A model generated the notes under the pieces. That model searched no databases. It was not told the DNA's origin and saw only the letters and a list, made by a program, of their open reading frames with translations. A DNA stretch of 64,000 nt from Acidobacteriota bacterium (GTDB lineage: Bacteria > Acidobacteriota > Thermoanaerobaculia > Thermoanaerobaculales > Sulfomarinibacteraceae). The stretch is taken from assembly GCA_024641545.1 (NCBI GenBank), contig JAHECW010000003.1, forward strand, positions 1,951 through 65,950, given 5' to 3'. Below, piece by piece: positions 31,227 through 64,000 of the stretch. The translations under genes and the position numbers were made by a program. Numbering within the stretch: position 1 is the first letter of the stretch; each line of letters begins with the position of its first letter.

Positions 31227-31254
31227 CCAGTCACCAGTCACCAGTCACCAATCA
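31227..31254. repeat. (CAGTCACC)3 word array
   Basis: CCAGTCACCAGTCACCAGTCACCAATCA lies between convergent stops at 31191 and 31252. Confidence 0.8.
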
Positions 31255-35536: not shown

Positions 35537-35841
35537 GGGTCCTCCGGTGGGCGCTGCCGTTGGGGATCATAACGTATGTCGGGACGAGGTCGGAGCGGGG
35601 AGGGCTTCCGCTTCGCCGCTCGAGTTGTCGCTCGTGACCATGCATCTGTCGCGTCTGTCCATGGTGAGGTCGACCGACCGACAGTATCCTTGGAAAGGTT
35701 CGGATGTTCAGGAAAGCCACTTGGGCCGGGCCCTGGAGTTCCGGAATTGAGCCGCACGGGCGGCGACCGCGTTTTCCACTTGGGGCCGAGTCCGCAACGC
35801 GTCGATCTCTTTATCGACGTCGAGGGGAAGGAGCTCTCAGT

Positions 35842-37485
35842 ATGAATCGAACGATCCCTGTCACATCACGCGTGGTGTTGATCATCGTCGCATTGGCAGT
35901 GCTGCCGGGAACGGCGAGGGGAGAAACAACGGACATCGACGGTGGCGCGCTCACGTTCGAAGACGCGGGACGATTCGACTCTCCGTTCAAGGCGGTGGAT
36001 CCTGCATCCCGGCTCCCGGAGCGCGTGGTCGATCCGTCGTCGGTGAGGCCGTATCTCGTGCCCGAACACATCCGATCCGTCAGGGGCGCCTCCCCCGGCT
36101 CGGGCTCGGAAATGCTCAAGCAGCTCGAGCCTGAGCTGCGGGACAATGCCCTGATCGATCTCGAGTTGTTCGGCGATCCCGATCAGGTCCATCTTCTGCA
36201 GGCCGCCAACGTGGAAGAGCTGTGGAATGCCGGAAGCCACCGGGAGGCCGTCGAAAGCCTCGACGAGCTCGAAGCTTCGGGTTCGATCTTCGCGGTGGGT
36301 CTCTCCTGGAAACGTCCGATCGTAGTCGACACCAAGATGGTGTATCCGGATGTCCGGATCGGCAGCCGGACCGATGGCGCCGACGCCGCGCTCGATTTCG
36401 ACGCCGAAACCGGCAACATCTTCGCGATGATCGTCTGGAACGTCGGTTGGTCGATGAACATCTCGACGGACGGCGGCGCGAGCTGGGCCGAAACGTACTA
36501 TTACAGCGGGTATCAAACGATCGCCGACATGACGGTGTCCGGCGATTTCGCGTGGGTCGGTTACAGCGCCGACGCCGACGCCTACCACTCGTCCCGGTTC
36601 CGTCGGTTCGACGTCGCAACCGGTCTTCACGACGACGTCTACAGCTTCCAAATCGTCGCCGACGAAGCCCCCAATACCATGGTCGAGATCGCGGTTGTGG
36701 GAAACGCGCCCGACCTGGACAACCGTATCTACATCGCCTACCTCCTGGACGAGGACAACAGCATCCACTTCTGGTGGGCATACATCGAAGGCCTGTCGTT
36801 CCACGAGATCTCGCCCGCGGTCACCGATGCGGCATCGAGCCTCGACCTGTGCTGGAATCCAGCCACCTCGAGCGGGTACCGGCGGTGGATTTCGTATCTT
36901 TCGACCGGCGGTTCCGTCCGAATCTGGCGCAGCTCCGGGGATGCATGGAACCCCGAGGTGTCATGGACCTACACCGGCACCACGGAGCGAACCGCGATTT
37001 CCGCCTACGCCGATAACGTGTACTGTGCGTTCGAGTGCGAAACCGATCCGGACAAGTACGGGGCCTGCTACCTGTCCAGCTCCGACGCCGGCGTCACCTC
37101 CTGGGTTCACGACGACGCCTACTGGCCGACAGGAACCGAGGTGAGCGGTTACTCCCCCGACATCACCGTGCGCTCGGGCGTCGGCAGGGCGCTCGTCTTC
37201 AGCTCCGAGACCGGCTTTCTCGACGATGTGTACTACACCACTCGCCGAGGTTGGACCGCGGGAACGTGGTCCGACCCGGTGTGGTACAACAACTATGATC
37301 ACGTCTCGGGCGAGGCGACCTACATCGAGTGGCTCGGAGCGAGCTGCGTCTCGACCTTCGGGATGCTCTACTTCGATGGAACGGGTGATCATTCGCCCTA
37401 CTTCGATCTCATGACCCCGCGGGGCTATTTCTGCGACGGCTTTGAAGGCGGGTCCACCGGCGGCTGGAGTTCGGTGCTGCCGTAG
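35842..37485 (+). CDS. secreted BNR/Asp-box beta-propeller-like protein
   Basis: Start at MNRTIPVTSRVVLIIVALAVLPGTARG (signal peptide) with GGAAGGAG upstream. Asp-box STDGGASW. C-terminal tail YFCDGFEGGSTGGWSSVLP. Confidence 0.75.
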   Translation: MNRTIPVTSRVVLIIVALAVLPGTARGETTDIDGGALTFEDAGRFDSPFKAVDPASRLPERVVDPSSVRPYLVPEHIRSVRGASPGSGSEMLKQLEPELRDNALIDLELFGDPDQVHLLQAANVEELWNAGSHREAVESLDELEASGSIFAVGLSWKRPIVVDTKMVYPDVRIGSRTDGADAALDFDAETGNIFAMIVWNVGWSMNISTDGGASWAETYYYSGYQTIADMTVSGDFAWVGYSADADAYHSSRFRRFDVATGLHDDVYSFQIVADEAPNTMVEIAVVGNAPDLDNRIYIAYLLDEDNSIHFWWAYIEGLSFHEISPAVTDAASSLDLCWNPATSSGYRRWISYLSTGGSVRIWRSSGDAWNPEVSWTYTGTTERTAISAYADNVYCAFECETDPDKYGACYLSSSDAGVTSWVHDDAYWPTGTEVSGYSPDITVRSGVGRALVFSSETGFLDDVYYTTRRGWTAGTWSDPVWYNNYDHVSGEATYIEWLGASCVSTFGMLYFDGTGDHSPYFDLMTPRGYFCDGFEGGSTGGWSSVLP

Positions 37486-37605: not shown

Positions 37606-37750
37606 TGTCGGGACAGGGAGGGGGAAGATCATCGGGCACGGAAGCGGAAACGGACGCGGCCGCTGCCGCTGTCCCAGTCGGTGTCCCAGTCGGTGTCCCA
37701 GTCGCTGTCCCTGCCGCGGACGCGGGCATGGGAGGGGGAGGGCAAGGGGG
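37606..37750. repeat. hexamer-periodic array with G-tract ends
   Basis: GGAAGC GGAAAC GGACGC GGCCGC TGCCGC (TGTCCC AGTCGG)x3 ... CTGCCGCGGACGCGGGCATGGGAGGGGGAGGGCAAGGGGGG. It shares the GCCGCGGACGCGG end with the arrays at 42706-42812 and 49966-50050. Confidence 0.8.
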
Positions 37751-38363: not shown

Positions 38364-38463
38364 GGTTCCTCCGGGTGGGGAGTCCACCCGGGGCTTATGC
38401 TACCGCAATCCCTTCGGCGCCACCGGCCGAAGCGGTCAGCCGATGAAATCTGCGGGATCCCGT

Positions 38464-39213: not shown

Positions 39214-39226
39214 GATCTCCCCCGGT

Positions 39227-41236
39227 TTAGGGCCATTCCCCCTGATTCACCGCGCCGGTCGTGTCCGGCGATCGCAAGCGCTCCTGGAGCTGCAGGTTCC
39301 GTGGATTCCCGGGCTCGAGCTTGCGAGCCCGCCCGAGCGTCGCCTCCGCCTCGTCGCGCCTGCCCGAGTCCAACAGGGCGATCGTCAGTCCTCGCCACGA
39401 CGGGGCGTGGCCAGGATCGATCGTGGTTGCACGCCGAAAACTCTCGATCGCGAGATCGAAGTGACCGAGCCTGCTTTGTGCCAGCCCGCAGTTGAAGTTG
39501 ATGTTGAGATCGGACGACTCGGCGGCTTCGGTTGCGCACAGCACCTCGGCGGCGGCATCGGGTTCCTGCCTTCGCAAGAGCTCGACTCCGAGGTTGTTGC
39601 GGGCTGGAATGAAACCGGGATCGCCGGCGAGCACTTCGCGGTAGTTGCGGATCGCCTGCTCGACGTCGCCGAGATCCCGGTACGCGTTGCCGAGGTTGAA
39701 GACGATGAGGGGCAGGTCCGGTTGCAGCCGGCGGGCCAGGTTGTAGGCCTCGATGGCCTTCTGCGGCTGACCCATCGCCATCTGCGACTTGCCGAGCAGC
39801 ACCGCCGACGCGTGTTGGGTCGGGTTGATCTCCAACGACCTGGCCGCATGGCGGGCGGCCTCTTCCGGATGGCCGTTGTCGATCAGTATCTCGGCGTAGT
39901 TCGTGTGGGCGACCCAGTTGTTCTCTGTCGCTTCGAGCGCCTGACGGTACAAGGTCTCGCTGTTTTTCCAGGTCGCCGTTTGACGCCATGCCAGCGCTGC
40001 GTACAGGACGACGACAACCGCAACCGTTGTCGTGATCGCGAATCGCAGCTGCGGCCGGTGGGCCACGAGATCGACGAGCCCCCATGCCAGCATCAGCCAC
40101 AGACCGATCTGGGGAAGATAGGAGTATCTGTCAGCCATGGCCTGGGAACCCACCTGCACGAGCCCGATCACCGGCAGCAGGGTGCCCATGAACCAGAACC
40201 AGCCGACGGCCAGGTACGGACGAGGTCGAACCTGCCGGAGCACGGCCGCCGTCACTGTGACCAGCAGTGCGCCGGCCGCCGCTGCCTGCCACCACGGGGT
40301 GCCGTTCACCGGGTGCGGGTAGAAGACCGCGAGATTGGTGGGAAACAGGGACTTGAGGATATACCCGACCCAGGCGACCGGAGCGTTGCTGAGGCGGGCC
40401 GAGAACGGCAGCTCCGACAGACCACCGAGAGCGCCGCGTTGGGCGATCATCGTGACCGCGCTCGAGGCGAGCGCCATCATCAGCAACGGCAGCTTTTCCA
40501 GGGCGAGGGGAAGACCACGACCCTCCGACGCATCGCCGAGCTGAAACCTCTGCAGAGGCCAGAAGTCGAGGAGAAGCAGAACAAAGGGGAGGGTGACCAG
40601 CATCGGTTTGGCCATCAGGCCGAGGGCGAAGAGGGCCGCCACCACCACATATCGTCCGGCTCCGGGACTCTTGACGTACCGGTTCCAGGCCAGGAGTACG
40701 GCCATGGAGAGCATCACCGACAGCACGTCTTTTCGTTCTGAAACCCAGGCGACGGACTCGGCCCGCATGGGATGGATCGCAAACAGCACCGCCACCAGCG
40801 CGCTCGGCCAAACCGACCCGGTCATGCGGCAGAGGGCGACGAAGAGGAGGACGACGCCGAGCGCGTGCAACGCCATGTTGGTGAGGTGGTGCTTGCCGGC
40901 GTCCAGACCGAAGAGCTGGCAGTCCACCATGTGGGAAATCCAGGTCAGGGGATGCCAGTTGTCGGCGTGGAACGAGGTGAAGGCCCAACGAAGCCCTTCC
41001 ACGCTCAGACCCCGTTGGACGATCGGGTTCTCGGTGACGTAGATCGGATCGTCAAACGTGACGAAACTGAAGTCGGCGGTCTGGGCGAAGACGATCACCA
41101 CTGCGAGCACCAGTCCGGCCGCCGTCATCGCGATCGTTCGTGGCAAGGTCGAAGCGTGGCCTCGAGACTGTGCTGGCTGAGCCGGCGGTCGATCCGGAGC
41201 TTTTCGGTTCTTTCGGAGTCGCCGATTCTTGCCCAT
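39227..41236 (-). CDS. TMTC-like membrane O-mannosyltransferase-type protein with C-terminal TPR repeats
   Basis: 669 aa. The N-terminal polytopic domain (FVTFDDPIYVTENP...HADNWHPLTW...) resembles PMT_2/DUF1736. The C-terminal ~280 aa are TPR repeats. Confidence 0.75.
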   Translation of the reverse strand: MGKNRRLRKNRKAPDRPPAQPAQSRGHASTLPRTIAMTAAGLVLAVVIVFAQTADFSFVTFDDPIYVTENPIVQRGLSVEGLRWAFTSFHADNWHPLTWISHMVDCQLFGLDAGKHHLTNMALHALGVVLLFVALCRMTGSVWPSALVAVLFAIHPMRAESVAWVSERKDVLSVMLSMAVLLAWNRYVKSPGAGRYVVVAALFALGLMAKPMLVTLPFVLLLLDFWPLQRFQLGDASEGRGLPLALEKLPLLMMALASSAVTMIAQRGALGGLSELPFSARLSNAPVAWVGYILKSLFPTNLAVFYPHPVNGTPWWQAAAAGALLVTVTAAVLRQVRPRPYLAVGWFWFMGTLLPVIGLVQVGSQAMADRYSYLPQIGLWLMLAWGLVDLVAHRPQLRFAITTTVAVVVVLYAALAWRQTATWKNSETLYRQALEATENNWVAHTNYAEILIDNGHPEEAARHAARSLEINPTQHASAVLLGKSQMAMGQPQKAIEAYNLARRLQPDLPLIVFNLGNAYRDLGDVEQAIRNYREVLAGDPGFIPARNNLGVELLRRQEPDAAAEVLCATEAAESSDLNINFNCGLAQSRLGHFDLAIESFRRATTIDPGHAPSWRGLTIALLDSGRRDEAEATLGRARKLEPGNPRNLQLQERLRSPDTTGAVNQGEWP

Positions 41237-41340
41237 GGCAGGATTCTACCTGGTCCCACTCATGCGAAACGAAGGGAAGCGGCAGGCTTTGGATGCTCCG
41301 ATCCGGCGTTGCTTTCAGGCGCTCCGCGACACGTCCCCCG

Positions 41341-42816
41341 TCACCCTCCCGGGGTGTGCGGCGGAAACCAGCACGAAACCACCGACCCGCCGCCGGATCG
41401 CTGTTGCAGGCTGATCCGGCCGCCGTGGCCCTCGACGATCTCGCGGCAGAGGGCGAGACCGAGACCGCTGCCGGTCTTTTTTGTCGAGTAGAAGGGCAGC
41501 AGGGCGCGCTTCATGGTTTCCTCGTTCATCCCTCGACCGCGGTCGAGGACCTGGACGCAGGCGCCGCCCTCGGCGGTCGCGAAGACCCTGAGGCTGATCT
41601 CGGGTTCGGCATCCGAGGCCTCGACCGCATTCACAAGCAGGTTGATCAGGAGCTGGCGAAACTGCGCGCGATCGAGCCAGACGGGCCGCGAGGGGAGCGG
41701 CCCGTCGATGGTGAGGGTCGGAAACTCGTCGAGGTGGTCGAGCAGCCCGGACCACGTCGCCTCCTCGCGGCGCGGCGCCGGCAGCCGCGCGAATCGTGCG
41801 TAGCCGTCGATGAACTCTCTGAGGTGTCCGAGCCTGTCGCGGATCGTGGCGAAGACCTCTTCGGCTCGATCGGCGTGTTCCGGGCGCCGGCTGATGAGCT
41901 CGGCGGAGTGGACCAGCGACGATACCGGCGCGAGTGAGTTGTTGAGTTCGTGCGAGATGACCCGGATGACCTTCTTCCAGATCGCCGCCTCCCTGCGGCC
42001 GAGCTCGGCGGTCATCCGGTAGAGCAGGACCAGGACGTGCTTTCGGCGGTTGAGAACGAACCCTCGTCGTGAAAGGTGGTAGGTTTCGATGCTGTCGCCG
42101 TCTCGAACCGAGAACACACCGTCACCGTCGCCGGCGAGGATCTCGCGCATCTGGGGCGGGCAGCTCTGTCGGATGTCGGCGGCAAACAGACGACCTTCGA
42201 GCCGGCCGCCGCCGGTCAGCAGCCGCCGCGCCTCGAGATTGGAAAAGACGACCCGGTCGCGGGGGTTGACCAGGACGACGGCGACCGGCGACTGGTCGAG
42301 GGCGCTGGAGAGCAGGAGCTCCCTGGAACGGACCGCCAGGCGTTCGTCGCGCAGGGTCTCGCCGACCCGGTTGTAGAGCCGGGCGAGATCGCCGAGCTCA
42401 TCCTTGCGGTCCGAGGCGAGCCGGACGCTGAAATCGTGGTCGTTGAAACTGGCGATGCCGAAGTGCAGGCCGCTGAGCGTCCGGTCGAGGGGGCGGAGGA
42501 TGCGGCTGACGAGCCAGGCGCCGACCGGGATGCCGATGAGCATGGCGAAGATCAGGCCGAGCCACGGATCGCCGGTGAGCCGCATCATCCCGGCTACGAG
42601 AACCCCTTGGATGACGAGCACGAAAACTATCGCCGCCGTGAGCCGGCCGGCGAGGGAGGGGCGGAAGGGAAGAGTCGTGGAGCCTTGGGGGCGTGAGGCC
42701 GACACCGCGGCTGATGTTGTCCCGGTCGCTGCTCCTGCCGCTGCCGCTGTTCCTGCCGCTGTTCCTGCCGCTGACTCTGCCGCTGACTCGGACGCGGACT
42801 CGGAGGGATCGGTCAT
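41341..42816 (-). CDS. sensor histidine kinase (HAMP-PAS-HisKA-HATPase_c), NtrB-like partner of the sigma-54 regulator
   Basis: H-box VISHELNNSLAPV, N-box LLVNAVEAS, G2 GSGLGLALCREIVEGHGG. ATG 42816 overlaps the regulator stop (ATGA). An alternative GTG at 42705 would skip the hexamer array. Confidence 0.85.
   Translation of the reverse strand: MTDPSESASESAAESAAGTAAGTAAAAGAATGTTSAAVSASRPQGSTTLPFRPSLAGRLTAAIVFVLVIQGVLVAGMMRLTGDPWLGLIFAMLIGIPVGAWLVSRILRPLDRTLSGLHFGIASFNDHDFSVRLASDRKDELGDLARLYNRVGETLRDERLAVRSRELLLSSALDQSPVAVVLVNPRDRVVFSNLEARRLLTGGGRLEGRLFAADIRQSCPPQMREILAGDGDGVFSVRDGDSIETYHLSRRGFVLNRRKHVLVLLYRMTAELGRREAAIWKKVIRVISHELNNSLAPVSSLVHSAELISRRPEHADRAEEVFATIRDRLGHLREFIDGYARFARLPAPRREEATWSGLLDHLDEFPTLTIDGPLPSRPVWLDRAQFRQLLINLLVNAVEASDAEPEISLRVFATAEGGACVQVLDRGRGMNEETMKRALLPFYSTKKTGSGLGLALCREIVEGHGGRISLQQRSGGGSVVSCWFPPHTPGG
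42706..42812. repeat. hexamer-periodic array lying between or inside the NtrC-HK gene pair
   Basis: GCTGAT GTTGTC CCGGTC GCTGCT CCTGCC GCTGCC GCTGTT CCTGCC GCTGTT CCTGCC GCTGAC TCTGCC GCTGAC TCGGAC GCGGAC TCGGAG. Confidence 0.85.
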
Positions 42817-44213
42817 GGCAGGGGAGAACGGCTTCTCGGGCGCCGTTCGAGCTCGATGCCGAACCGCGCCATCTTCCGATAGAGAGCCTGGCGCGTGATC
42901 TCGAGCTCGTCGGCCGCGCGCGCGACGATGCCGCGGTTCCGGTTGAGCACCGCCAAGAGCCGTTCGCGCTCGGCGAACTCGTCGTCCCCGAGCGGTCCGG
43001 CGCTCCGGTCATCGGCGTTGCTGATCCCGAGGTCCTCGGGGGTGATGGTCGTTCCGGACGCGACCACGGTCGCCCGCTGGATTCGATTCTCGAGCTCGCG
43101 GACGTTGCCCGGCCAATCGTGAACCGTGAGCGCCCCGACGGTCTCGTCGGCGAGTTCGAAGATCGCGCCGGGCGCGTGGTGGTCGAGAAAGTGGCGCGCG
43201 AGCGGGAGAACATCTTCGGCCCGCTCGGCCAGGGGCGGCAGCCGGAGCTCGACCACGTTGAGGCGATAGTAGAGATCCTCCCGGAACCGACCGTCGACCA
43301 CGGCGGCGACGAGATCGGCGTTGGTCGCGCTGATCACGCGGACATCGGCCGAACGCGCCTCGCTGCTGCCGAGCCGGCGGAACTCGCCGCTCTGCAGGAC
43401 CCGCAGGAGCTTGACCTGGCCGGCGAGGGAGAGCCCGTCGATCTCGTCGAGAAAGAGGGTGCCGCCGTGGGCGGTCTCGAAGTGACCGATCCGGCGGCTG
43501 GTGATCCCGGTGTAGGCGCCCGGTTCGGCGCCGAAGAGCTCACTCTCCATGAGGTCGTCGGGGATCGCACCGACATTGACGCGGACGAAGGGTCGGTTTC
43601 GGCGGGACGAGTTCGTCTGGACGATCTCCGCGAGCTTCTCCTTGCCCGAACCGCTCGGTCCGGTGATCAGGACCGGCGCCGACGAGTCGGCGACGCCGAT
43701 GGCGAGCGAGACCACCCGATGCATCGCCGCACTGCGGTAGACGACGCCGCAGAGCTCGTGCTCGGCGGCGAGCTCCGCCCGAGTCCGATCGAGCGCGGCG
43801 TGCAGGCGGCGGCTCTCCTGCCGCGCCGCGCGGAGCTCGACAAGATTGCGGACCGAGGTCACCAACTGATCGTCCTGCCACGGCTTCTCGAGGTAATCGG
43901 CGGCGCCGGCCTTGACCAGCTCGACCGCCGACTCGAGGGACGCCCAAGCGGTAATGACGACGATGGGAAGCTCGGGGTCGATCTCGCGCAGGCGGTGAAA
44001 AAGCTCGACGCCTTCATCCCCGCTGGTGACGTGGGGCGAGAAGTTCATGTCCATGACCACGGCGCCGAGGATTTCGCCGGCGACGATCCGGCAGGCCGCG
44101 CCCGGCGAGGCCGCCCCCAGGTTTGGGATGTCGTGGAGATCGAAGAGGACCCCCAGCGCGGTCAGCACCGCCGGCTGGTCGTCAACCACGAGAACCCGGA
44201 GGGAATCGGTCAC
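42813..44213 (-). CDS. sigma-54-dependent response regulator (NtrC family)
   Basis: 466 aa. Receiver domain (VVMDMNF). AAA+ domain with Walker A GPSGSGKE, GAFTGA variant GAEPGAYTGI and RVISATN. C-terminal Fis-type HTH (ELEITRQALYRKM). Confidence 0.9.
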   Translation of the reverse strand: MTDSLRVLVVDDQPAVLTALGVLFDLHDIPNLGAASPGAACRIVAGEILGAVVMDMNFSPHVTSGDEGVELFHRLREIDPELPIVVITAWASLESAVELVKAGAADYLEKPWQDDQLVTSVRNLVELRAARQESRRLHAALDRTRAELAAEHELCGVVYRSAAMHRVVSLAIGVADSSAPVLITGPSGSGKEKLAEIVQTNSSRRNRPFVRVNVGAIPDDLMESELFGAEPGAYTGITSRRIGHFETAHGGTLFLDEIDGLSLAGQVKLLRVLQSGEFRRLGSSEARSADVRVISATNADLVAAVVDGRFREDLYYRLNVVELRLPPLAERAEDVLPLARHFLDHHAPGAIFELADETVGALTVHDWPGNVRELENRIQRATVVASGTTITPEDLGISNADDRSAGPLGDDEFAERERLLAVLNRNRGIVARAADELEITRQALYRKMARFGIELERRPRSRSPLP

Positions 44214-44258
44214 GGTGGCCCCATTCTACGCGGCCCGGCGGCGCGCCGGTGCGTCACC

Positions 44259-45467
44259 TCACACCGTCCTCGTCGTGACCACCGGCGGCACCAGGGTGGC
44301 CTGGAAGGCGGGGGCGAGGGCCGACGCCACCCCGATGACCCACAGCAGGGCAATCCCTTCGGCCAGCAGGGTCCATTCGAGGGCCGGTGCCCCAGCGACG
44401 AGCGTGAGGGCGTAGTTGAGGACATAGGTCAGGACGACTCCGAGGGTGAGCCCGATCCCGGTGATCACCCAGATTTCGATGACGAAATACCGCATAACCT
44501 CGCCGCGGGTTGCACCGAGGGCGCGGCGGGTGCCGATCTCGCGGACCCGCTGGGTGACCGAGAACGAGGTCAGACCGATAATCCCGAGGGCGGTCACCCC
44601 GATGAGCAGCACGGTCAGTGCGGTCAGGATCTTCACCAGGACCAGCTCGCCGTCGAAATAGTCTCGTTTGTAATCCGAGAGCAGCCGAACGGTGACGACC
44701 CGGTCCGTGTTGACCGCCCGTACTGCGGGTTCCAGCTCGTTGAAGACGTGGTCCATGTCGCCGGGATGGGTTCTGACGACATAGCGGAGTTCACGCGGGT
44801 CGTCGGTCGGGCCCGGCCGGAGCATCACCGACTCGGCGATGGACGAACGCGGCCAGGCGTTGTGCATCTTGGCGATGATCCCGACGACGGTGCCGAAGAC
44901 CCGATCGGTGTCGACATCGTGCAGGGTCCTGCCGAGGGCGTCGCCGTCGGGGTAGAGCTTGTCGGCCAACGCCTGGGTGATGATGAGATTCTCGGGCTCG
45001 TCGGATTCGGGGTGGAGATCCGACTCGATGTGATCGCGGCCGGCGACGAGCTCCACGCCGAAGGCGTCGAGTGCTCCGAGGCCGGTGGTGAAATACGGCG
45101 CCGCTTGACCGTCGCCTTCGCTGTCGGCTGGTCGCAGCCGAGTGATCGCGCCACCCCCGGCGAGGGGAAGGTAATCCACGGCGGCGGCGGCTCGCACCCC
45201 GGGGAGCGCCTGCAGCCGGCGGAGGTCCTCCTCGCGGACGGTGTCGAGGAATGCCTGGTCCGCAAAATCGTCGGCGAAGGGCTGGGTCGTGACGACCACG
45301 AGATTGGGCTCGTCGATCCCCGAGGACCGGGTCAGCAGGTCGCGCCGGTCGAGGATGATGGCGACGCAGTTGGCGACGACGGCGAGGGTCAGCGCCACCT
45401 CGACGGTGATGAGCCAGAACCGGGTCGGGTTGTGCATCAGGGCGCGGATGATGGGGCCGAGTTCCAT
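44259..45467 (-). CDS. ABC transporter permease, FtsX/MacB type
   Basis: 402 aa. TM1, a large periplasmic domain and three C-terminal TM helices (FtsX). RALGATRGEV motif. Confidence 0.85.
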   Translation of the reverse strand: MELGPIIRALMHNPTRFWLITVEVALTLAVVANCVAIILDRRDLLTRSSGIDEPNLVVVTTQPFADDFADQAFLDTVREEDLRRLQALPGVRAAAAVDYLPLAGGGAITRLRPADSEGDGQAAPYFTTGLGALDAFGVELVAGRDHIESDLHPESDEPENLIITQALADKLYPDGDALGRTLHDVDTDRVFGTVVGIIAKMHNAWPRSSIAESVMLRPGPTDDPRELRYVVRTHPGDMDHVFNELEPAVRAVNTDRVVTVRLLSDYKRDYFDGELVLVKILTALTVLLIGVTALGIIGLTSFSVTQRVREIGTRRALGATRGEVMRYFVIEIWVITGIGLTLGVVLTYVLNYALTLVAGAPALEWTLLAEGIALLWVIGVASALAPAFQATLVPPVVTTRTV

Positions 45468-45479
45468 GCTTGAGACCTT

Positions 45480-46793
45480 TCACTGCAGCTTGAGGTGGAC
45501 GGCCGGTGCGACCCGACAGATCCGCCACGCGGGATAGACGCCGGCAACCAGGCCGGCAACCAGCGCCAATCCGATGCCGGCCCCGACCATGGTGAGATCG
45601 AGGCCGAACTGACCGCTGTTGTCGAGCAGCCGGTTGATCAGGCGGAGGGCGACGACGGAGAGACCGAGCCCGAAGACGCCGCCGAGGACCCCGACGAACT
45701 CGCACTCGACCAGGTGCTGGGCGAAGACCGACGCGCGGCTCGCGCCGAGGGCGCGCCGGACGCCGACCTCCGGGGCGCGGGCGAGGAACTTGCCGAGCAG
45801 GATCCCGATGAGGTTGACCGAACACACGAGCAGGAAGAGCAGCGAGATGACCAGCATCCCCGTCGCCTCCTCGGGCACCACCCGCCGTGTTTCCAGGAAG
45901 TGCATCACATCGAGGAGCCGGTTGTTGAGCGGTCGGGCGAAGCGGCCGAGCCTCTTCTGCTCCATGACATAGGCGGCGAGAAAGTCGCTGTAGGCCCGCC
46001 GCTGCTCGGCGGTGTCGAGTTGCACCCACATCTGGATCCAGACCGCCTCGGAGGTCAGGAACTCGGAGAAGCCGGTGCCGGCGCTGCCGTCCCAGATGAG
46101 CAGATTGCCCTCGGTGTAGACCTCGAAGAGGCGGAAGAACTCAAAGGGCAGGTAGATGCCCTCCGGGACCTGGTCGGCGCCGGTGTGGGGATCGTAGAAC
46201 CGCGGCGAAGGGCGCCACCGGGCGAGAACACCGACAACGGTGAAGAGCCGGTCCTCGATGCGGATGGTCCTGCCGACGGAATCGCCGCCGCCGAAGAGCT
46301 TCCGGTTGGTGGCGGCGTCAATGACCACCACGGGTTCGGGTCCCTGGTCGGCGTCCCGCCCCCATCCGCCGCCGAACTCGAACGGGACCTCGAAGAGAGG
46401 GAAGAAGTCGGAGAAACACATCCGTGCCCTTTCCCGATACGGCCGCTGCCCCTCCCCGTCGGGATGGACGGTGAGCGCGGCGACGAACATCCCGCTCTGG
46501 TGGGTGGGAATGTCGGATCTCATGATCCCCTGCATGTCGCGGTAGGTGATCTGTTCGGGTGGGATCTCGGGTCGCGACTGGGAGTACGGCCGGTCGGGCC
46601 CCCAGCTGTCCATTTCGACGTAGTACAGACGGTCGCTCTTGGCCGGGATCGGGTCGCCGGAGTAGACGTGGTGGACGGTCACGAAGGCCGTCGACACCGC
46701 AACCCCGAGGGCGATGGCGGCGACCAGCAGAGTCGACAGAACGGGGTTTCGCTTGAGGCTGAGCCACGCGATGCGGATTTGGTAGGCAAGCAT
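45480..46793 (-). CDS. ABC transporter permease, FtsX/MacB type (second paralog)
   Basis: 437 aa with the same architecture. RRALGASRASV motif. Confidence 0.85.
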   Translation of the reverse strand: MLAYQIRIAWLSLKRNPVLSTLLVAAIALGVAVSTAFVTVHHVYSGDPIPAKSDRLYYVEMDSWGPDRPYSQSRPEIPPEQITYRDMQGIMRSDIPTHQSGMFVAALTVHPDGEGQRPYRERARMCFSDFFPLFEVPFEFGGGWGRDADQGPEPVVVIDAATNRKLFGGGDSVGRTIRIEDRLFTVVGVLARWRPSPRFYDPHTGADQVPEGIYLPFEFFRLFEVYTEGNLLIWDGSAGTGFSEFLTSEAVWIQMWVQLDTAEQRRAYSDFLAAYVMEQKRLGRFARPLNNRLLDVMHFLETRRVVPEEATGMLVISLLFLLVCSVNLIGILLGKFLARAPEVGVRRALGASRASVFAQHLVECEFVGVLGGVFGLGLSVVALRLINRLLDNSGQFGLDLTMVGAGIGLALVAGLVAGVYPAWRICRVAPAVHLKLQ

Positions 46794-46805
46794 CCGGGTT
46801 GCTCC

Positions 46806-47534
46806 TCAGATCCGCGACGATACGGCGCGCTCGGCCGCGACCGCCAACGGCGCCGGTCGGTCGTCGGCCTCGAAATCGATGAGCCGGCCGTCAAGCAGGT
46901 GCAGGCAGCGCCGGGCGCGGGCGGCGAGATCGGGTTCGTGGGTCACCATCACGACGGTGGTTTCCATCTCGTTGATGGTCTCGAGCAGATCCAGGATCTC
47001 GTTGGCCATGGCGGTGTCGAGGTTGCCGGTGGGTTCGTCCGCGAGGATGAGGTTCGGGGCGCCGACGAGGGCTCGGGCCACCGCCACCCGCTGCTGTTGA
47101 CCGCCCGAGAGTTGGGCCGGGTGGTGTTTCGAACGCGCGCTGAGGCCGACGATGTCGAGCGCGTGGTCGATGGCCTTGCGGCGGTCCGCCGCCTTCATTC
47201 CGCGGTAGCGGAGCGGGACATCAACGTTGTCGAAGACGTTGAGGTCGGGGATGAGATTGAACGACTGAAAGATGAACCCGATCTTGCGGTTGCGGATCCT
47301 CGACATCTGACGATCGCTGAGCTTGCTGACATCCTCGCCGTCAAAGAGGTAGCGGCCCTGTTCGAAGGTGTCGAGGAGACCGGCGATGTTGAGCAGCGTC
47401 GTCTTGCCCGAACCCGACGGACCCATCACCGACACGAACTCCCCGGAGTCGATCTTGAGGGTGAAATCGGTCAGCGCGTGGGTTTCGACGTGCTGGGTTC
47501 GATAGATCTTGCGGATACCGTCCATCTCGATCAT
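46806..47534 (-). CDS. ABC transporter ATP-binding protein (MacB/LolD type)
   Basis: Start at MIEMDGIRKIY with AAGGAG upstream. Walker A GPSGSGKTT, signature LSGGQQQR, Walker B LILADEPTGNLD. Confidence 0.9.
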   Translation of the reverse strand: MIEMDGIRKIYRTQHVETHALTDFTLKIDSGEFVSVMGPSGSGKTTLLNIAGLLDTFEQGRYLFDGEDVSKLSDRQMSRIRNRKIGFIFQSFNLIPDLNVFDNVDVPLRYRGMKAADRRKAIDHALDIVGLSARSKHHPAQLSGGQQQRVAVARALVGAPNLILADEPTGNLDTAMANEILDLLETINEMETTVVMVTHEPDLAARARRCLHLLDGRLIDFEADDRPAPLAVAAERAVSSRI

Positions 47535-47557
47535 GAGCTTCTCCTTGCTTTTCCGGA

Positions 47558-48829
47558 CTAACGCACCAGCACGCGCTGCGCGCCTTCGAACCGGGTGGTG
47601 TCGGAAATGACGATCTCGTCTTCGGCTGCGAGGCCGGATCGAATCTCGACCTCGGAGATGCTGGTCGCGCCGATCTCGATCGGCCGCATCACCGCCATGC
47701 CGTCGGCGACGATGTAGGCCTGGCGGCCGCTGCCCGCCTCGAGCCACGGCCCGCGAGCGACCTTGAGCACGTCGCGACGGGTTTCGAGCACGATTCGGAC
47801 GCTGACGCGCTGGTTCTGCTTGAGACCTCCCGGGATGGCGCCCGTGAAGGCAACCCGCCCCTTGACCCGGTTCCCCTCGACCTCGGGCGAGATGCCGACC
47901 ACCGCACCGTCGAAGCTCTCGGCGCCGATGGTGATGACCGCGGAGGTCCCGGGGGTGACCTCGTCGGCGAGATTCTCGGCGACGGCGGTTTCGACCTCGA
48001 GGGCCGAGAGATCGACCACGGTGACGAGGGCTTCGTTGCGCGCCACCGCCTGGCTGTCTTCGACGTGGATCCGTGAAACCAGCCCGGCGACCGGCGCCCG
48101 GACGACGAGCGAGTCGACTCGGCGTTCGAGGTCGCTGGCCAGGAGGCGCTGGCGTTCGAGGCGCTGGCCCGCGTCTTCGAGTTCGAAGGCGTGCATCTCG
48201 CGCTCGAGGCTCTCGCGGCGTTGGGCCTTGCCGAGTTCGAGGGTGCGGATGGTGACCTCGTCGCGCGCGGTCTCGAGATCGATCTCGTTGACCAGACCGA
48301 TGTCGAAGAGGCGTTGGGATCGATCGAGGTTGCGTCGCGAGGCGGCCAGGCGGACCTCGGCAAGCTCGATATCCTGTTCGTTCTCGAGTTGTCGTTGGCG
48401 GCTGGAGATCTCGAGCCGATCGTGTTCCGAGGCTGCGGCGGCGAGGGACGCCCGCTCCTGCATCAGGCTGTTCTCGAGCTCGGGGCTCGAGACCCTGCCG
48501 AGAACCTGGCCCTCCTCGACGACCTCGCCCGCTTCCACATCGATGACGACGATTCCCTGGGCCGGACTGAAGGCCGTCGGGTTGGACCCGGCGACCACGC
48601 GCCCGTCCACCGCCACCTCGCGGACGAGATCGCCGCAGGCGACCGAGCCGAGGCGAATCTGGGCCCGCGGGACCGAGGTCTCCGATTGCGCCCAGCGTTT
48701 GATGGATGGTGCGAGCACGAGACCGCAGGTGACGAGGACGGCTGCGACAGAGCCGAGCACCAGCAGGTGTCGTTTTCGCCTCGGGCGGTCGTCGATCGCC
48801 CGGTCCATGGAGGAGACGTCGCGGATCAT
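47558..48829 (-). CDS. periplasmic adaptor (HlyD/MFP family)
   Basis: Start at MIRDVSSMD. One TM segment, a coiled-coil hairpin (EHDRLEISSRQRQLENEQDIELAEVRLAASRRNLDRSQRLF) and beta-barrel domains. Confidence 0.85.
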   Translation of the reverse strand: MIRDVSSMDRAIDDRPRRKRHLLVLGSVAAVLVTCGLVLAPSIKRWAQSETSVPRAQIRLGSVACGDLVREVAVDGRVVAGSNPTAFSPAQGIVVIDVEAGEVVEEGQVLGRVSSPELENSLMQERASLAAAASEHDRLEISSRQRQLENEQDIELAEVRLAASRRNLDRSQRLFDIGLVNEIDLETARDEVTIRTLELGKAQRRESLEREMHAFELEDAGQRLERQRLLASDLERRVDSLVVRAPVAGLVSRIHVEDSQAVARNEALVTVVDLSALEVETAVAENLADEVTPGTSAVITIGAESFDGAVVGISPEVEGNRVKGRVAFTGAIPGGLKQNQRVSVRIVLETRRDVLKVARGPWLEAGSGRQAYIVADGMAVMRPIEIGATSISEVEIRSGLAAEDEIVISDTTRFEGAQRVLVR

Positions 48830-48860
48830 GGGTGCTTCTTGTCCATCGGTCAACCGATCA

Positions 48861-48875
48861 GCAAGCCCCGTGCCA
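48861..48875 (-). promoter_or_regulatory. sigma-54 (-24/-12) promoter
   Basis: The minus strand reads TGGCAC-GGGGC-TTGC, an exact match to TGGCAC-N5-TTGC, 32 nt upstream of the adaptor ATG. Confidence 0.7.
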
Positions 48876-48951
48876 GTCGCGGGCACACAACTTAAGTTAT
48901 TCAATCGCAGTTGTTTCGCTCCTGTGCAACCGGTCGGAAAGCGGGGCACAG

Positions 48952-48987
48952 CCGGACAGGTGTCCGGTTCGAGCGGACAGACGTCCG
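48952..48987. promoter_or_regulatory. two GGACA-type palindromes, candidate enhancer-binding (UAS) sites
   Basis: CCGGACA-GG-TGTCCGG (48952-48967) and CGGAC-AGAC-GTCCG (48974-48987) lie 80-125 bp upstream of the -24/-12 element. Confidence 0.4.
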
Positions 48988-49093
48988 GGGTCGACCCGGC
49001 GTTGAACGGGGCCCGAGCCCGGCGACGACAAGGGATCAACCGCGCCGGCCTGCCGTCGATTGGTAACGGAGCGGGGGGAGCATAGTCTTATGG

Positions 49094-49913: not shown

Positions 49914-49943
49914 CATTGTGGGGCCGGCGCCCCCGCCGGCCGG
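49914..49943 (+). repeat. REP2-family copy
   Basis: CATTGTGGGGCCGGCGCCCCCGCCGGCCGG is identical in its core to 17976-18005. Confidence 0.8.
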
Positions 49944-49965
49944 TCCGGCCTTCAGGTGGCCTTTG

Positions 49966-50050
49966 GCGCTGCCGCTGCCCCGGCCGCTGTCCCTGCCGCT
50001 GCCCCGGCCGCTGCCGCTGTCGCTGCCGCGGACGCGGACTCGGGCTCAGG
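49966..50050. repeat. hexamer-periodic array
   Basis: GCTGCC GCTGCC CCGGCC GCTGTC CCTGCC GCTGCC CCGGCC GCTGCC GCTGTC GCTGCC GCGGAC GCGGAC TCGGGC. Confidence 0.85.
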
Positions 50051-50089
50051 ATCGTTGCGGGCGTATAATCCCCCGGGTCTGGAGGCCCG

Positions 50090-52351
50090 ATGCGTTCCCT
50101 GCTCGTTCTTCTCGTGCTGTCTACCCTCATGTTCACAGTTGTCGCCGACGCCGCCGAGCGGCCGATCCTGGTTCGGGTCGAGGTCGGCGACCGCGCCGAG
50201 GCCCGCGAGGTCGGGGAGATCCTCAGCCTCGATGAGACGACGCGCGGCAATGTTCTCTACGGGTGGGGCACGGTCAAGGACATCGAGGCGGTGGAGAGGC
50301 TCGGCTATCTCGTCGAGGTCGTGCCGCTGGAACCGAAGGACCCCGACGCGCTCACGATGTGCTCCGAGCCGTTCGCGCCGCCGTTCCCGTGGAACTGCTA
50401 CCCGACGTGGTCGCAGTTCGAGACCATGATGAACTACTACGCGACGACCTACCCGTCGATCGCGCGGCTGGTCAACCTCGGGATGTCGGGTCAGGGGGAC
50501 CACGAGCTCTGGGCGCTCAAGATCACCGACAACCCCGACATCGAGGAGAACGAGCCCGAGGTCCTCTACACCGGGACCATGCACGGCGACGAGCTGGTCT
50601 GCTACGGGACCACCGTCCACCTCATCGACCACATCCTGGCGAGCTACGGCAGCGATCCTCAGATCAACAGGCTGGTGGACGAGACCGTTCTCTGGTTCAA
50701 CCCGCTGTCCAACCCCGACGGCACCTTCGACGGCGGAGACACCAATGTCAGCGGGGCGAGTCGAGGGTTGCCGGCCTCGGGTTATGCCGACCCCAACCGG
50801 AGCTTCCCGGATCCGAGCGTGCCCGAGGATCCCATGTCTCCGGGCTGGCCGGCCGAGGTGCAGGACATGATGGATCTGGCGGCGGCCGAGCACTTCACGA
50901 TCGCCGCCAACTGCCACGCCGGCGCGGAGGTCTTCAACTACCCGTGGGATGTCTGGAGCGTGCGGCACGTCGATGATGACTGGTGGATCGCGGCGGGTAC
51001 CGGCTACGCATCCAGCGCCCAGGCGGCGAGCCCGAGCGGCTACTTCACCATGTGTCCCGGCGCTTGCCCATTCCCGGGGGTCACCAACGGCTACGACTGG
51101 TACACCACCTCCGGCAACCGCCAGGATTTCATGAACTGGTACCACGGCTGCCGTGAGGTCACCCTCGAGCTGGCGGATGCCAAGTCACTGGATGTCAATC
51201 AGCTCGACGCCCACTTCGGCTACAACCGGCAGTCGCTGCTCGACTACTTCGAACTGTCGTTGACCGGGATCCGCGGGGTGGTCACCGACGCCGTTTCGGG
51301 CGCGCCGGTGGCGGCCGAGATCCGGGTTGTCGGTCACGACCTCGAGGCGCAGCGCAGCTGGGTGAGCACCGATCCCGAGATCGGCGACTACCACCGCCTC
51401 ATCGATCCCGGTACCCACGATCTCGAGATCAGCGCTCCGGGCTACGAGTCCGCGACCGTCAGCGGCGTCGTGGTGACGGCCGGATCCGACGCGACTATCC
51501 AAGATGTCGTGCTGACGCCGCTGCCGCGCTACACGGTGACTGGAATCGTCACCGATGCGGCGACCGCGGCGGCCGTGCCCGGCGCCACCGTGACGTTGGT
51601 CGGGACCTCGCTCACGCCGGCGACCACCGGTCCGACCGGCAGCTACACCATCACCGATGTTTGGGAGGGGACCTACGTCTTCCGCGTCGAGGCGCCGGGT
51701 TATGGCGTCGTCGAGACCGATCTCGCCGTCGGCCCCGGGAGCACCGTTCACGACTTCAGCTTGACGGTGGTCGTCACCTTCTTCACCGCGGATTTCGAAA
51801 GCGACGACGGTGGTCTGATTCCGTCCCAGGGGTGGGCCTGGGGTATCGACGCCACCGCCGGCTCGCACTCCCCGACCAGGGTGTGGGGCACCGTCCTCAA
51901 CGGCAACTACAGCAGCAGCGTTCAGTGGACCGTGACGACACCCTCGATGGCCCTCCCCGCCGGCGACGGCGCCGAGCTCCGCTTCTGGCAGTGGTACGCC
52001 ATCGAAAGCGGCTACGACGGCGGCAACATCAAGGTCGCCGTCGACGGCGGCGCCTTCAACCTGGTGACGCCGACGCCCGGTTACAACGACCCGACCATCA
52101 CCGCCTTCGGCGATACCCCCGGTTTCACCGGCAGCGCCGGCTGGCACGAGGTCGTCGTCGACCTGACGCCTTTTGCCGGACACTCGGTCGAGATCCGCTG
52201 GACCCTCGGCAGCGACGGCAGCATCACCGAACGCGGCTGGTACCTCGATGACATGACGGTCACCGTCTGGGGCGGCGAGGTCGTGCCGCCGTTCTTCGCC
52301 GACGGCTTCGAGTCCGGCGACACGACGGCGTGGTGGTCGGCAGAGCCTTAG
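50090..52351 (+). CDS. secreted M14 zinc carboxypeptidase with CarboxypepD_reg-like and jelly-roll C-terminal domains
   Basis: Signal peptide MRSLLVLLVLSTLMFTVVADA. Zinc site YTGTMHGDELV. Two GVVTDA..G.P domains. A final ~170-aa domain starts FFTADFESDDGG. C-terminal tail FFADGFESGDTTAWWSAEP. Confidence 0.85.
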   Translation: MRSLLVLLVLSTLMFTVVADAAERPILVRVEVGDRAEAREVGEILSLDETTRGNVLYGWGTVKDIEAVERLGYLVEVVPLEPKDPDALTMCSEPFAPPFPWNCYPTWSQFETMMNYYATTYPSIARLVNLGMSGQGDHELWALKITDNPDIEENEPEVLYTGTMHGDELVCYGTTVHLIDHILASYGSDPQINRLVDETVLWFNPLSNPDGTFDGGDTNVSGASRGLPASGYADPNRSFPDPSVPEDPMSPGWPAEVQDMMDLAAAEHFTIAANCHAGAEVFNYPWDVWSVRHVDDDWWIAAGTGYASSAQAASPSGYFTMCPGACPFPGVTNGYDWYTTSGNRQDFMNWYHGCREVTLELADAKSLDVNQLDAHFGYNRQSLLDYFELSLTGIRGVVTDAVSGAPVAAEIRVVGHDLEAQRSWVSTDPEIGDYHRLIDPGTHDLEISAPGYESATVSGVVVTAGSDATIQDVVLTPLPRYTVTGIVTDAATAAAVPGATVTLVGTSLTPATTGPTGSYTITDVWEGTYVFRVEAPGYGVVETDLAVGPGSTVHDFSLTVVVTFFTADFESDDGGLIPSQGWAWGIDATAGSHSPTRVWGTVLNGNYSSSVQWTVTTPSMALPAGDGAELRFWQWYAIESGYDGGNIKVAVDGGAFNLVTPTPGYNDPTITAFGDTPGFTGSAGWHEVVVDLTPFAGHSVEIRWTLGSDGSITERGWYLDDMTVTVWGGEVVPPFFADGFESGDTTAWWSAEP

Positions 52352-52444: not shown

Positions 52445-54412
<1,968 letters not shown>

Positions 54413-60054: not shown

Positions 60055-60274
60055 ACCGTCCCTCCTTTGGGCAGCCGGCCGTTTGATCCGGCCGCGAAGA
60101 TGTTGGGAGCAAGGTGCTCCGTCGATACATGCTGTTCGCGCGTCTGAGTTGCAACTCTTCATCGACGCTAACCATAGTTGCTAAATTGAGCAAGTCGCGA
60201 TGCGGCAATTCAAGACCAGGAATCATTTTCTGTTAGGATCGGGGTGACGAAGATCACCTATCGGAGGGCGCAAG

Positions 60275-62221
60275 ATGTCTGACCAGAACCGTCCGGACGT
60301 GGACCTGACCACCAGCCAACGCGCCGCCATCGAGGCGCTGATGCAGCGAGAGGAACCGATCCGGCCGCCGCTTTGGATGCGGCGCGGTGCGGCCATCGAC
60401 TACGCAACGGAATGCGCCCACGCCGACGAGGATCCGGCGGGGTTCTGGGCGGAGAAGGCGGCGGCCGTCGAGTGGTTCTCCCGCTGGGATCGGGTACTCG
60501 ATTTCGACCCGCCCCACCACCGCTGGTTTTCAGGCGGCACCCTCAACGCCACCGTCAGCTGCATCGACCGCCATGTCCACTCGGACCGCCGCAACAAGGC
60601 GGCCATCATCTGGATAGGTGAGACCGGTGAGGAGCGCACCTACACTTACAACCGCCTCTACCGCGAGGTGAACCGCTTCGCCAACGCCCTCAAGGCGCTC
60701 GGGGTCGAGACCGGCGACCGGGTCGTGCTCTACATGCCGCTGGTGCCCGAAGGCATCGTGGCGATGCTCGCGTGCGCCCGCATCGGCGCCATCCACTCGG
60801 TCGTCTACGCGGGCATGGGGAGTCAGTCGCTCAAGGCCCGCATCGAGGATGCCGGCGCCAAGGTGGTCATCTGCTCGGACTTCACTTTTCGCCGCGGCAA
60901 GGCGGTTCCCCTCAAGCCCACCGTCGATGAAGCGGTGCGCGATCTCTATGCCGTCGAGCACGTCATCGTCCACCGCCGCGGCTCACGGCCGGGCGACGAC
61001 CGGGTCGAGTTCGAGTCCGAGCGTGAGTACGATTTCTACGACATCCAGGAGCCGCGGGCGGTGCACTGCGAACCGGTTCCGGTGGACGCCGAACACCCGC
61101 TCTTCATCCTCTACACTTCGGGCACCACGGGACGGCCGAAGGGGGTGGTCCACGCCACCGGCGGATATCTGGTGGGCACCACCTACCTGAGCCGCGCCTT
61201 TTACCAGATCCAGGATCGCGACATCTACTGGTCGACCTCGGACATCGGCTGGATCGTCGGCCACTCGTTCATCGTCTACGGCCCGCTCTCGGTGGGCGCC
61301 ACCGTGCTCTGCCGCGAAGGGGTCCCGGACTACCCGTCGCCGGACGTGACCTGGGAACTGTGCGAGCGCTTCGGCGTCAACGTCATGTTCACCGCGCCGA
61401 CCGCGGTGCGGATGTGGATGAGCCACGGCGGCGACGTGCCGTCGAAGTTCGATCTGTCCAGGCTGCGGCTGGTGGCGTGCGCCGGGGAGCCCCTCAACCC
61501 CGAGGCGCACCGCTGGGCGCAGCGGTACCTCGTGTCGCAGGCCGACGGCTACGTCGTCGACAACTGGTGGCAGACCGAGATCGCGGGGCCGGTGCTCGGC
61601 ACGCTGCCCAACTTCGAGGCGCGGCCCGGCAAGGTCGGCCGACCGATGCCCGGGGTCGATGCCGCGGTGGTGGACCCCTCCGGACAACCGGTGGAGGCCG
61701 GCCAGGGCGGTTTGCTGGTCATCCGCAAGCCCCTGCCGTACATGCTGCGCACGGTGTGGAACGACCCCGACCGGTACGCCGAGTACTGGTCGTCCATCGA
61801 CGGTTGCTACGCCGCCGGCGACGTCGCCTTCAACGATCGGGACGGCTACATCGGCGTGCTCGGGAGGGCCGACGACGTCATCAACGTGGCCGGCCACCGG
61901 ATCGGCACCGCCGATGTCGAGAGCTCGCTGCTGCGGCATCCCGCGGTGGCCGAGAGCGCCGTCGTCGGCCTGCCGGACGAGCTCAAGGGCGAACGGATCG
62001 TGGTCTTTTTGGTGGTCAAGCCCGGGATCGAGGTCGGCACGGGTCTCAGGGGAAGCCTGAGGGACCACGTCCGCGAGGACCTCGGACCCATCGCGACGCC
62101 GTCCGAGATCATCCTCCGTGATTCGCTGCCCAAGACCCGGTCGGGCAAGATCATGCGGCGGCTGCTCAAGGCCGAGGCCATGGGGGAGGATCCGGGCGAC
62201 ACCTCGACCCTGGCGGACTGA
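60275..62221 (+). CDS. acetyl-CoA synthetase-family acyl-CoA ligase (second paralog)
   Basis: 648 aa: [29 protein letters not shown]. Substrate (acetate or propionate) undetermined. Confidence 0.85.
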
Positions 62222-63402: not shown

Positions 63403-64000
63403 TCAGGGAACCACCCGATTCCAGGCCGAGGTGTCGCCCGACTCGAAGCCGTCCGAGAAAAGCGCGAGTTCCAACGCCCACAGCTCGCGGCCGTTGACGA
63501 GGTCCATCGCTGAGAAGAAGACCCGGCGACCGGAGAGCAGCGGCGCCCAGGGATCGGACGAGTTCGGTCCGGGGACGAGATCGAAGACCAGGGTGCCTTG
63601 GGCAGACCCGTCGGTGACCACCAGCTCGCTGCCGAACCCGTCGATCCGGGCCGGGAAATAGAGCCGGCCGTCGTCGACCACGGCCTCGGAGTCAAAGGCC
63701 GGGAACCGGCTCCCCCCCGGGCCCTGGACGAGCTCGAAGGCCATGGCGGTGCCGGCTGATGTGCCGTCGGTGAGCCAGAGCTCCCAGCCGTGGACGCCGT
63801 CGGTGTGCCAGAAGGCCAGACGGCTGTCGAAGGAGGTGAGGCCGGTCGGCATAAAGGACTCGCTGCCCGGATAGACATCGGCGGTCATGGTCGTTCCCAC
63901 AGCGGTTCCGTCCGAGCTCCAGACCTCGGCGCCGTGCACGCCGTCGTTGGCGGTGAAGAAGACCCGGTCGCCGCGGCGGGTCAGCTGGAACGGCATCGAC
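63403..64000 (-). CDS. ELWxxDGT-repeat secreted protein, C-terminal part (5' end outside window)
   Basis: Repeats AEVWSSDGTAVGT, WELWLTDGTSAGT and SELVVTDGSAQGT. C-terminal tail LFSDGFESGDTSAWNRVVP. Confidence 0.7.
   Translation of the reverse strand, partial: SMPFQLTRRGDRVFFTANDGVHGAEVWSSDGTAVGTTMTADVYPGSESFMPTGLTSFDSRLAFWHTDGVHGWELWLTDGTSAGTAMAFELVQGPGGSRFPAFDSEAVVDDGRLYFPARIDGFGSELVVTDGSAQGTLVFDLVPGPNSSDPWAPLLSGRRVFFSAMDLVNGRELWALELALFSDGFESGDTSAWNRVVP

Follow-up and report, generated by a model that had tools for sequence, protein, structure and literature searches.

Three proteins encoded in a 64,000-nucleotide stretch of an Acidobacteriota genome (contig JAHECW010000003.1, family Sulfomarinibacteraceae; the whole stretch is called the window below) end in the same tail. 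It has the form F.DGFE[SG]G[DS]T..W....P-stop, is acidic and keeps identical spacing in all three open reading frames (ORFs), with 18 residues from the Phe to the terminal Pro. On balance, we lean towards reading this tail as a modular, lineage-specific C-terminal sorting or attachment tag of Sec-exported proteins of Thermoanaerobaculia-type Acidobacteriota, which would be recognised in trans. Which proteins make up the surface and the secreted proteome of bacteria is defined by C-terminal sorting signals, and every such signal known so far has led to dedicated machinery (sortase, exosortase, rhombosortase, type IX secretion system (T9SS)). The tail described here is carried by hundreds of different exoproteins of a little-studied, mostly uncultured lineage of sediments and soils.

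Position and conservation of the tail

Translation and a six-frame scan placed the tail at the end of an M14 peptidase (52292..52351, + strand, FFADGFESGDTTAWWSAEP plus stop), of a beta-propeller protein (37426..37485, + strand, YFCDGFEGGSTGGWSSVLP plus stop) and of a protein with ELWxxDGT repeats (63403..63462, - strand, LFSDGFESGDTSAWNRVVP plus stop). All three are present as a preliminary description of this DNA had reported. DGFE.G....W was found nowhere else in the window, and all three copies have 16 residues from the Asp to the stop. The DNA coding for the three tails differs at synonymous sites and in the stop codons (TAG/TAG/TGA). Thus, it is the peptide that is conserved and under selection, not a DNA repeat.

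Beyond the window, a word-index protein search with the tail profile returned 3 matches, its selection being too strict for an 18-mer, and an exhaustive HMMER hmmsearch was used instead. Against 1.84 billion representative proteins it yielded 3148 proteins at E<=1e-3. The best 152 of these 3148 contained 225 instances of the motif, 80 of which lay exactly 18 residues (Phe to last) from the end; 79 of the 80 ended in Pro. Since the profile included the terminal Pro, metagenome contig DNA was scanned separately with the core F-x-D-G-F-E-[ST]-G-D-x-[ST]-A-W alone, leaving the sequence after the Trp free. Among the matches listed, which stand in no defined order, we counted 122 instances, 117 of them resolvable. 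A stop exactly 5 codons after the Trp was found in 76 (67 ending in Pro) and a stop 0-11 residues after it, the xxxGGP variant included, in 21, while 20 continued for more than 20 further residues; in the remaining 5 the contig ended first. Enrichment of the motif at C-termini, proposed beforehand as a check on the tail, was therefore borne out in the core-only scan (76 of the 117).

In addition, one genome per GTDB species was scanned for DGFExG-x4-W-x4-P-stop, a pattern that specifies the Pro. This gave at least 133 tails in at least 119 loci from about 60 metagenome-assembled genomes (MAGs), several per MAG and in one case at least 6. Almost all records were MAGs labelled Thermoanaerobaculia, Thermoanaerobaculales, Candidatus Multivoradales, Candidatus Sulfomarinibacteraceae, Holophagae or Acidobacteriota. 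Residues absent from the search pattern were conserved as well. Among 131 tails, position -18 was Leu, Ile or Val in 117, -17 was Phe in 122 and -11 was Ser in 102, and Thr at -8 (92 tails), Ser at -4 (106) and Val at -1 (68) were also frequent. Overall, conservation extends to 14 of the 18 tail positions among the unrelated carriers of about 60 MAGs, the consensus being [LIV]-F-x-D-G-F-E-S-G-D-T-S-A-W-S-x-x-V-P-COOH. A linker rich in Gly, Pro and Ala precedes the tail.

Many of the database matches are short fragments at contig ends, a point in favour of an artefact, by which the tail would reflect domains truncated in assembly or gene calling, or a chance motif. These fragments are, however, cut at their N-termini and not at their C-termini. 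Real stops lie at the fixed distance within long contigs, some exceeding 1 Mb, and no coding sequence follows the stops in the window. Given the base composition of the window, 2e-6 occurrences of the DGFExG-x4-W-x4-P-stop DNA pattern would be expected there by chance, versus the 3 observed. The fixed stop distance in at least 130 genes from about 60 MAGs, the conserved terminal Pro and the Thr at position 10 likewise argue against truncation. We regard the artefact explanation as refuted.

Carriers, predicted structure and relation to jelly-roll domains

The tail is modular across unrelated carriers. Comparison of 90 carriers with Pfam and NCBIfam revealed a heterogeneous set with FG-GAP (13), InhA-like MAM (8), S8 (5), BNR (5) and beta-helix (4) proteins, together with C1, M14, M28, M4 and reprolysin peptidases, lectins, cytochrome c7 and an ExeM/NucH nuclease. 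By a crude signal-peptide test, an N-terminal hydrophobic region was present in 75 of the 88 full-length carriers versus 179 of the 406 neighbouring genes. The N-termini of both complete window proteins, the M14 peptidase and the propeller, look like signal peptides, in agreement with the preliminary description. At the other end, a hydrophobic 15-mer within the last 45 residues was found in only 3 of the 88 carriers, and the tail has a mean net charge of -2.9. No model covered the tail when the tail and its carriers were searched against Pfam and NCBIfam (June 2026). PDB sequence searches with the tail profile and with a domain-bearing protein gave nothing meaningful, and none of the papers listed in a literature search on the motif, ELWxxDGT, choice-of-anchor and Thermoanaerobaculia sorting signals dealt with this tail. 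The carrier families matched NCBIfam choice-of-anchor J, Q and B, rhombosortase-, myxosortase- and T9SS-dependent peptidase regions and rhombotarget A; they are thus families that use C-terminal sorting signals elsewhere.

The M14 peptidase is encoded by ORF 50090-52351 (+). Its body (50090..52291, +) comprises a signal peptide, the M14 carboxypeptidase, two CarboxypepD_reg domains and an InhA-like MAM (choice-of-anchor-J-like) jelly-roll, as assigned with Pfam, NCBIfam and AlphaFold2. This beta-rich jelly-roll (Pfam PF20773; AlphaFold2 strands 562-727) is opened by the string FFTADFESDDGG (residues 564-575; 51779..51814, +), which is related to the tail, as previously claimed, and forms the first strand and loop according to translation and AlphaFold2. 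In the AlphaFold2 model (53-sequence alignment, mean predicted local distance difference test (pLDDT) 82), the MAM domain 562-727 reached a pLDDT of about 90, with a strand at 562-567. Tail residues 731-753 had pLDDT values of 55/51/38, formed no strand and were not docked on the domain. The propeller protein (ORF 35842-37485, +; body 35842..37425, +) consists of a signal peptide and a beta-propeller that lacks a Pfam match. Its core was modelled confidently by AlphaFold2 (23 sequences) and has sialidase/lectin-like fold neighbours in the PDB; its tail residues 528-547 had pLDDT values of 33/29. The tail is thus predicted to be a flexible appendage on two unrelated folds, outside the fold of its carrier, and docking of the tail in cis on its own carrier was rejected on the basis of the two models. 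The third carrier (body 63463..63999, -), whose N-terminus lies outside the window, contains 4 ELWxxDGT repeats (TIGR04534, NCBIfam).

Orthologues of the M14 peptidase belong to Thermoanaerobaculales, and those with the same domain architecture, including Thermoanaerobaculales- and Acidobacteria-named ones, mostly keep the C-terminal F.DGFESGDT..W core. All 23 of the 23 propeller homologues, a Sulfomarinibacteraceae MAG among them, retain the core motif at the C-terminus. The window's propeller protein itself has a 100% identical counterpart at NCBI. In M14 peptidase homologues with 35-45% identity from Bacteroidota, Cloacimonetes and Zixibacteria, a T9SS C-terminal domain (CTD; PF18962) or a dockerin (PF00404) replaces the tail. 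Some M14 orthologues (P0159, P0163, P0164, P0169, P0170, P0172 and P0173) have a conserved, basic 17-residue extension, VVGGAxLEYRxGPSKRLxAD, after the core in place of xxVP-COOH. This extension could be another flavour of the tag or an unprocessed form. A strict division of lineages into 'long' and 'short' flavours was rejected, as loci with the long form also have variant ends in their flanks; the three contigs compared for this purpose contained the queried gene alone.

Where the motif is not terminal, it starts a jelly-roll domain as its first strand. This uncharacterised domain spans about 170-190 residues, resembles CBM_4_9, Polysacc_lyase and NTTRR-F1 only weakly (Pfam/NCBIfam) and recurs as a repeat in giant proteins from other organisms (P0004, P0005, P0007, P0008 and others). 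Sequence comparison shows clear homology between the tail and the string FADGFESGDLSAW that opens this repeated domain. Two positions distinguish them: position 10 is Thr in 72 of the 80 tails and Leu, Phe, Met, Tyr or Val in 73 of the 109 internal copies, and position 18 is Pro in 79 of the 80 tails and mostly Gly or Thr in the internal copies. By these residues the tail is a distinct sequence flavour, separate from the domain-embedded version. The preliminary description had suggested an orphan first strand of the jelly-roll; the homology to the start of the domain upholds this in part, while the tail is not a leftover of truncation. The unit also occurs elsewhere in proteins. Two mycosin-like S8 peptidases (P0014 and P0021) have two free-standing copies in their N-terminal regions, and P0015 has four tandem units of about 21 residues. 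Thus, neither a C-terminal position nor a jelly-roll domain is needed for the unit to occur.

The tail shares clear homology with the opening strand of the jelly-roll, a domain often found at C-termini or in repeats. This also speaks for a different origin, in which the tail would be the vestige of a C-terminal jelly-roll or CBM domain that has been lost. Alternatively, it might act in cis as a cap that stabilises the carrier or blocks carboxypeptidases; neither version needs a partner in trans, and none was found among the genes at tail loci. A terminal Pro resists most carboxypeptidases, and the organism secretes an M14 carboxypeptidase. But a remnant would decay, yet 14 of the 18 positions are conserved and the synonymous divergence shows selection on the peptide. 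Moreover, the same tail occurs on folds without a jelly-roll (FG-GAP, BNR, ELWxxDGT, beta-helix), AlphaFold2 packs it against neither carrier, and a protease cap needs the last residues only, not a conserved 18-mer. We therefore consider a vestige or a cap improbable.

How the tail might be recognised

Reading the tail as an address tag is suggested by its occurrence on unrelated Sec-exported carriers in one lineage, its place at the extreme C-terminus behind a linker, the selection on the peptide, the predicted flexibility and its replacement by sorting or docking modules. A short sorting or secretion tag had been among the earlier proposals. C-terminal enrichment, mixed carriers with signal peptides, the exchange with T9SS CTD or dockerin and the predicted disorder form strong circumstantial evidence for it, and no processing or secretion gene was found at tail loci. 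From these observations we infer recognition in trans, a destination, any cleavage and strand augmentation as follows. The carrier would pass the inner membrane by means of its N-terminal signal peptide and then fold, with the acidic 18-residue tail staying flexible behind its short linker rich in Gly, Pro and Ala. A putative partner would bind the tail in trans, most plausibly by beta-strand or hairpin augmentation, since the tail appears to descend from the first strand-loop-strand of a jelly-roll. Recognition would send the carrier to its destination, be it the outer membrane, the surface of the cell or the surrounding medium, a role that the T9SS CTD or dockerin has in the homologues of other phyla. 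The terminal Pro may also shield the tag from the organism's own secreted carboxypeptidases.

A more specific version of the address tag is possible, but we hold it only tentatively. Here the tail would mark the substrates of a new sorting or surface-display system, in which a helix-free, acidic peptide is caught by strand complementation, for example by a jelly-roll receptor that lacks its own first strand. If true, this would be a recognition principle unlike that of sortase, exosortase or rhombosortase signals or of the T9SS domain. Even in its general form, an address tag would annotate the exoproteome at once (peptidases, glycosidase-like propellers, lectins) and would provide a handle for finding new envelope-sorting or surface-display machinery.

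Several observations weigh against an address tag. Free-standing tandem copies without a following domain occur in P0014, P0015, P0021, P0026, P0028 and P0038, with 2-4 units at a spacing of about 21 residues, which is closer to what would be expected of a binding repeat than of a sortase-type signal. What follows the Trp differs among orthologues: xxxxP is commonest, and 0-2 residues (WN, WD, WGN), xxxGGP, xxVGGS and the 17-residue extension also occur. Such varied ends fit poorly with recognition of the exact C-terminal carboxylate. The fixed length noted previously thus applies to the window and to the majority of tails outside it and is not universal, the invariant element being a core near the end and not an exact length. 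Furthermore, the low pLDDT of the tail is no proof of disorder, and the lineage restriction, resting on the matches listed in the genome scan, is a lower bound and not proof. To our knowledge, every well-characterised sorting tag of diderms is either membrane-anchored or a much larger folded domain. Finally, no recurrent dedicated neighbour was found among about 1200 genes at 228 tail loci.

For this neighbour analysis, genes called in the fetched loci were clustered twice, once with about 680 genes (119 genome loci plus the window) and then with the larger set. The commonest neighbours that were not carriers themselves were Reg_prop histidine kinases (16 loci), sulfatase-like proteins (8 loci), ADOP permeases and TPR-kinases, all of them abundant acidobacterial paralogues. 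Neither the window nor the 228 clustered loci contained an exosortase. A partner gene, if there is any, is encoded away from the tail loci; the machinery for dispersed substrates of a sorting signal is usually encoded elsewhere. In the window, two ADOP-type (MacB/FtsX-like; TIGR03434) permease genes and an HlyD-type adaptor lie directly upstream of the M14 peptidase gene (44259-49087, -). The ADOP permeases show the window itself to be of acidobacterial origin. They and the adaptor were rejected as tail-specific machinery: ADOP permeases were near tails in 5 of the 228 loci, but are abundant acidobacterial paralogues. Next to them is a cluster encoding a GT2 glycosyltransferase, a TPR protein, a histidine kinase and a sigma-54 response regulator (38464-44225, -). 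Genes at 39227-44225 resemble the PEP-CTERM regulators PrsT/PrsK/PrsR, but all scores were under the NCBIfam cut-offs and the candidate was dismissed.

The main rival to an address tag is a peptide for non-covalent docking or retention, resembling a dockerin or a lectin ligand, that has no role in transport. It would tether enzymes secreted by a general route to a surface receptor, to exopolysaccharide or to a Ca2+-bridged matrix, and tandem copies would raise avidity. Dockerins at the same position in homologues from Zixibacteria and Cloacimonetes, the free-standing tandem copies (2-4 units) and the tolerated variation in length after the Trp are in line with this explanation. So is the acidic, Asp/Glu-rich nature of the tail (net charge about -2.9), since strands that bind Ca2+ in jelly-roll domains are likewise rich in Asp and Glu. 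However, no cohesin-like or other receptor was identified in the neighbour clustering of the tail loci, 18 residues are far below the size of any known docking module, and a simple binding repeat needs neither the extreme C-terminal preference nor the terminal Pro. Docking also overlaps with the address tag, differing only in what the partner does. We consider it rather unlikely that the tail docks and nothing more; if it did, it would be among the smallest natural protein tethers known.

Both complete carrier genes of the window lie in regions with repeats. A direct repeat of 300 nucleotides (97% identical; 35135-35434 / 37962-38261) stands on both sides of the propeller gene, and a second duplicated pair lies nearby (37764-37962 / 41362-41560). 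ORF 37752-38387 (-) is chimeric: its first 130 residues or so copy the N-terminus of a methylmalonyl-CoA mutase small subunit (33434-35536), and its end copies the C-terminus of the histidine kinase 41341-43008 (85% identical). The chimeric ORF and the repeats suggest a local rearrangement or insertion around the propeller gene. GC-rich tandem repeats with a period of 12 nucleotides (CCGCTGCCGCTGTCCC-like) were found at 37649-37737, 42703-42815 and 49943-50055, one copy lying just 3' of the propeller gene and one just 5' of the M14 peptidase gene. On a related metagenome contig (L120 1064-7967), an M14 peptidase orthologue adjoins two methylmalonyl-CoA mutase genes; in the window the propeller protein fills this mutase-adjacent slot (31252-37485) and the M14 peptidase is 15 kb off. 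Beyond the M14 peptidase gene, two acetyl-CoA synthetase-like genes (52445-54412, -, and 60248-62221, +) are less than 8 kb apart, with a DUF294/CBS/cNMP nucleotidyltransferase, a sodium:solute symporter and a porin O/P gene between them. This region looks like a locus for acetate uptake and activation.

Comparison with known C-terminal signals

The beta-signal of outer-membrane beta-barrels needs a terminal aromatic residue (usually Phe) that closes the amphipathic last strand of the barrel; the tail instead ends in Pro, in 131 of 131 tails of the genome scan, whose pattern specified it, and in 67 of the 76 core-only instances with a stop at 5 codons. Its carriers have soluble-type folds. Type I secretion substrates have an uncleaved C-terminal signal but no N-terminal signal peptide and are often RTX proteins, in contrast to the carriers, which are signal-peptide-like in 75 of 88 cases and include no RTX families.

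PEP-CTERM/exosortase, GlyGly-CTERM/rhombosortase, MYXO-CTERM and LPXTG/sortase systems share with the tail the principle of a short C-terminal tag on many unrelated exoproteins per lineage. Their carriers overlap with those described here (choice-of-anchor J, Q and B; M36 peptidase regions), although the matches to rhombosortase- and myxosortase-dependent M36 models cover the MAM region and not the tail. These signals consist of a signature motif (VPEP-type in PEP-CTERM), a transmembrane helix and a basic cluster, whereas the tail is acidic, helix-free and matches none of their models. The preliminary description had set the tail apart from PEP-CTERM and LPXTG for want of a hydrophobic helix, and the rarity of C-terminal hydrophobic stretches among the carriers confirms this.

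With the N-terminal strand of the jelly-roll (PF20773/choice-of-anchor J, CBM_4_9-like) the tail has F-A-D-G-F-E-S-G-D-x-S-A-W in common. It lacks the remaining 160 or so residues of that domain, stops 5 residues past the Trp at Pro, and has Thr instead of Leu or Phe at position 10.

The type I dockerin (PF00404) is likewise an acidic C-terminal appendage of secreted enzymes, occurs with duplicated units and holds the same position in M14 homologues from Zixibacteria and Cloacimonetes. Dockerins are duplicated, EF-hand-like Ca2+-binding modules of about 60-70 residues (segments of about 22) with cohesin as partner. By contrast, no tail-bearing protein had a PF00404 match, and neither an EF-hand-like pattern nor a cohesin was found here.

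The T9SS CTD of Bacteroidota (PF18962/TIGR04183) folds into a beta-sandwich of 70-100 residues, and its machinery is known. The tail differs from it in having 18 residues that are predicted to be flexible, are not similar to the CTD in sequence and match no model of Pfam or NCBIfam, PF18962 being found in distant homologues only. Yet both are C-terminal and modular, lack a membrane helix and are carried by heterogeneous Sec-exported exoproteins, especially peptidases, and in distant homologues of the M14 peptidase it is the CTD that holds the place of the tail.

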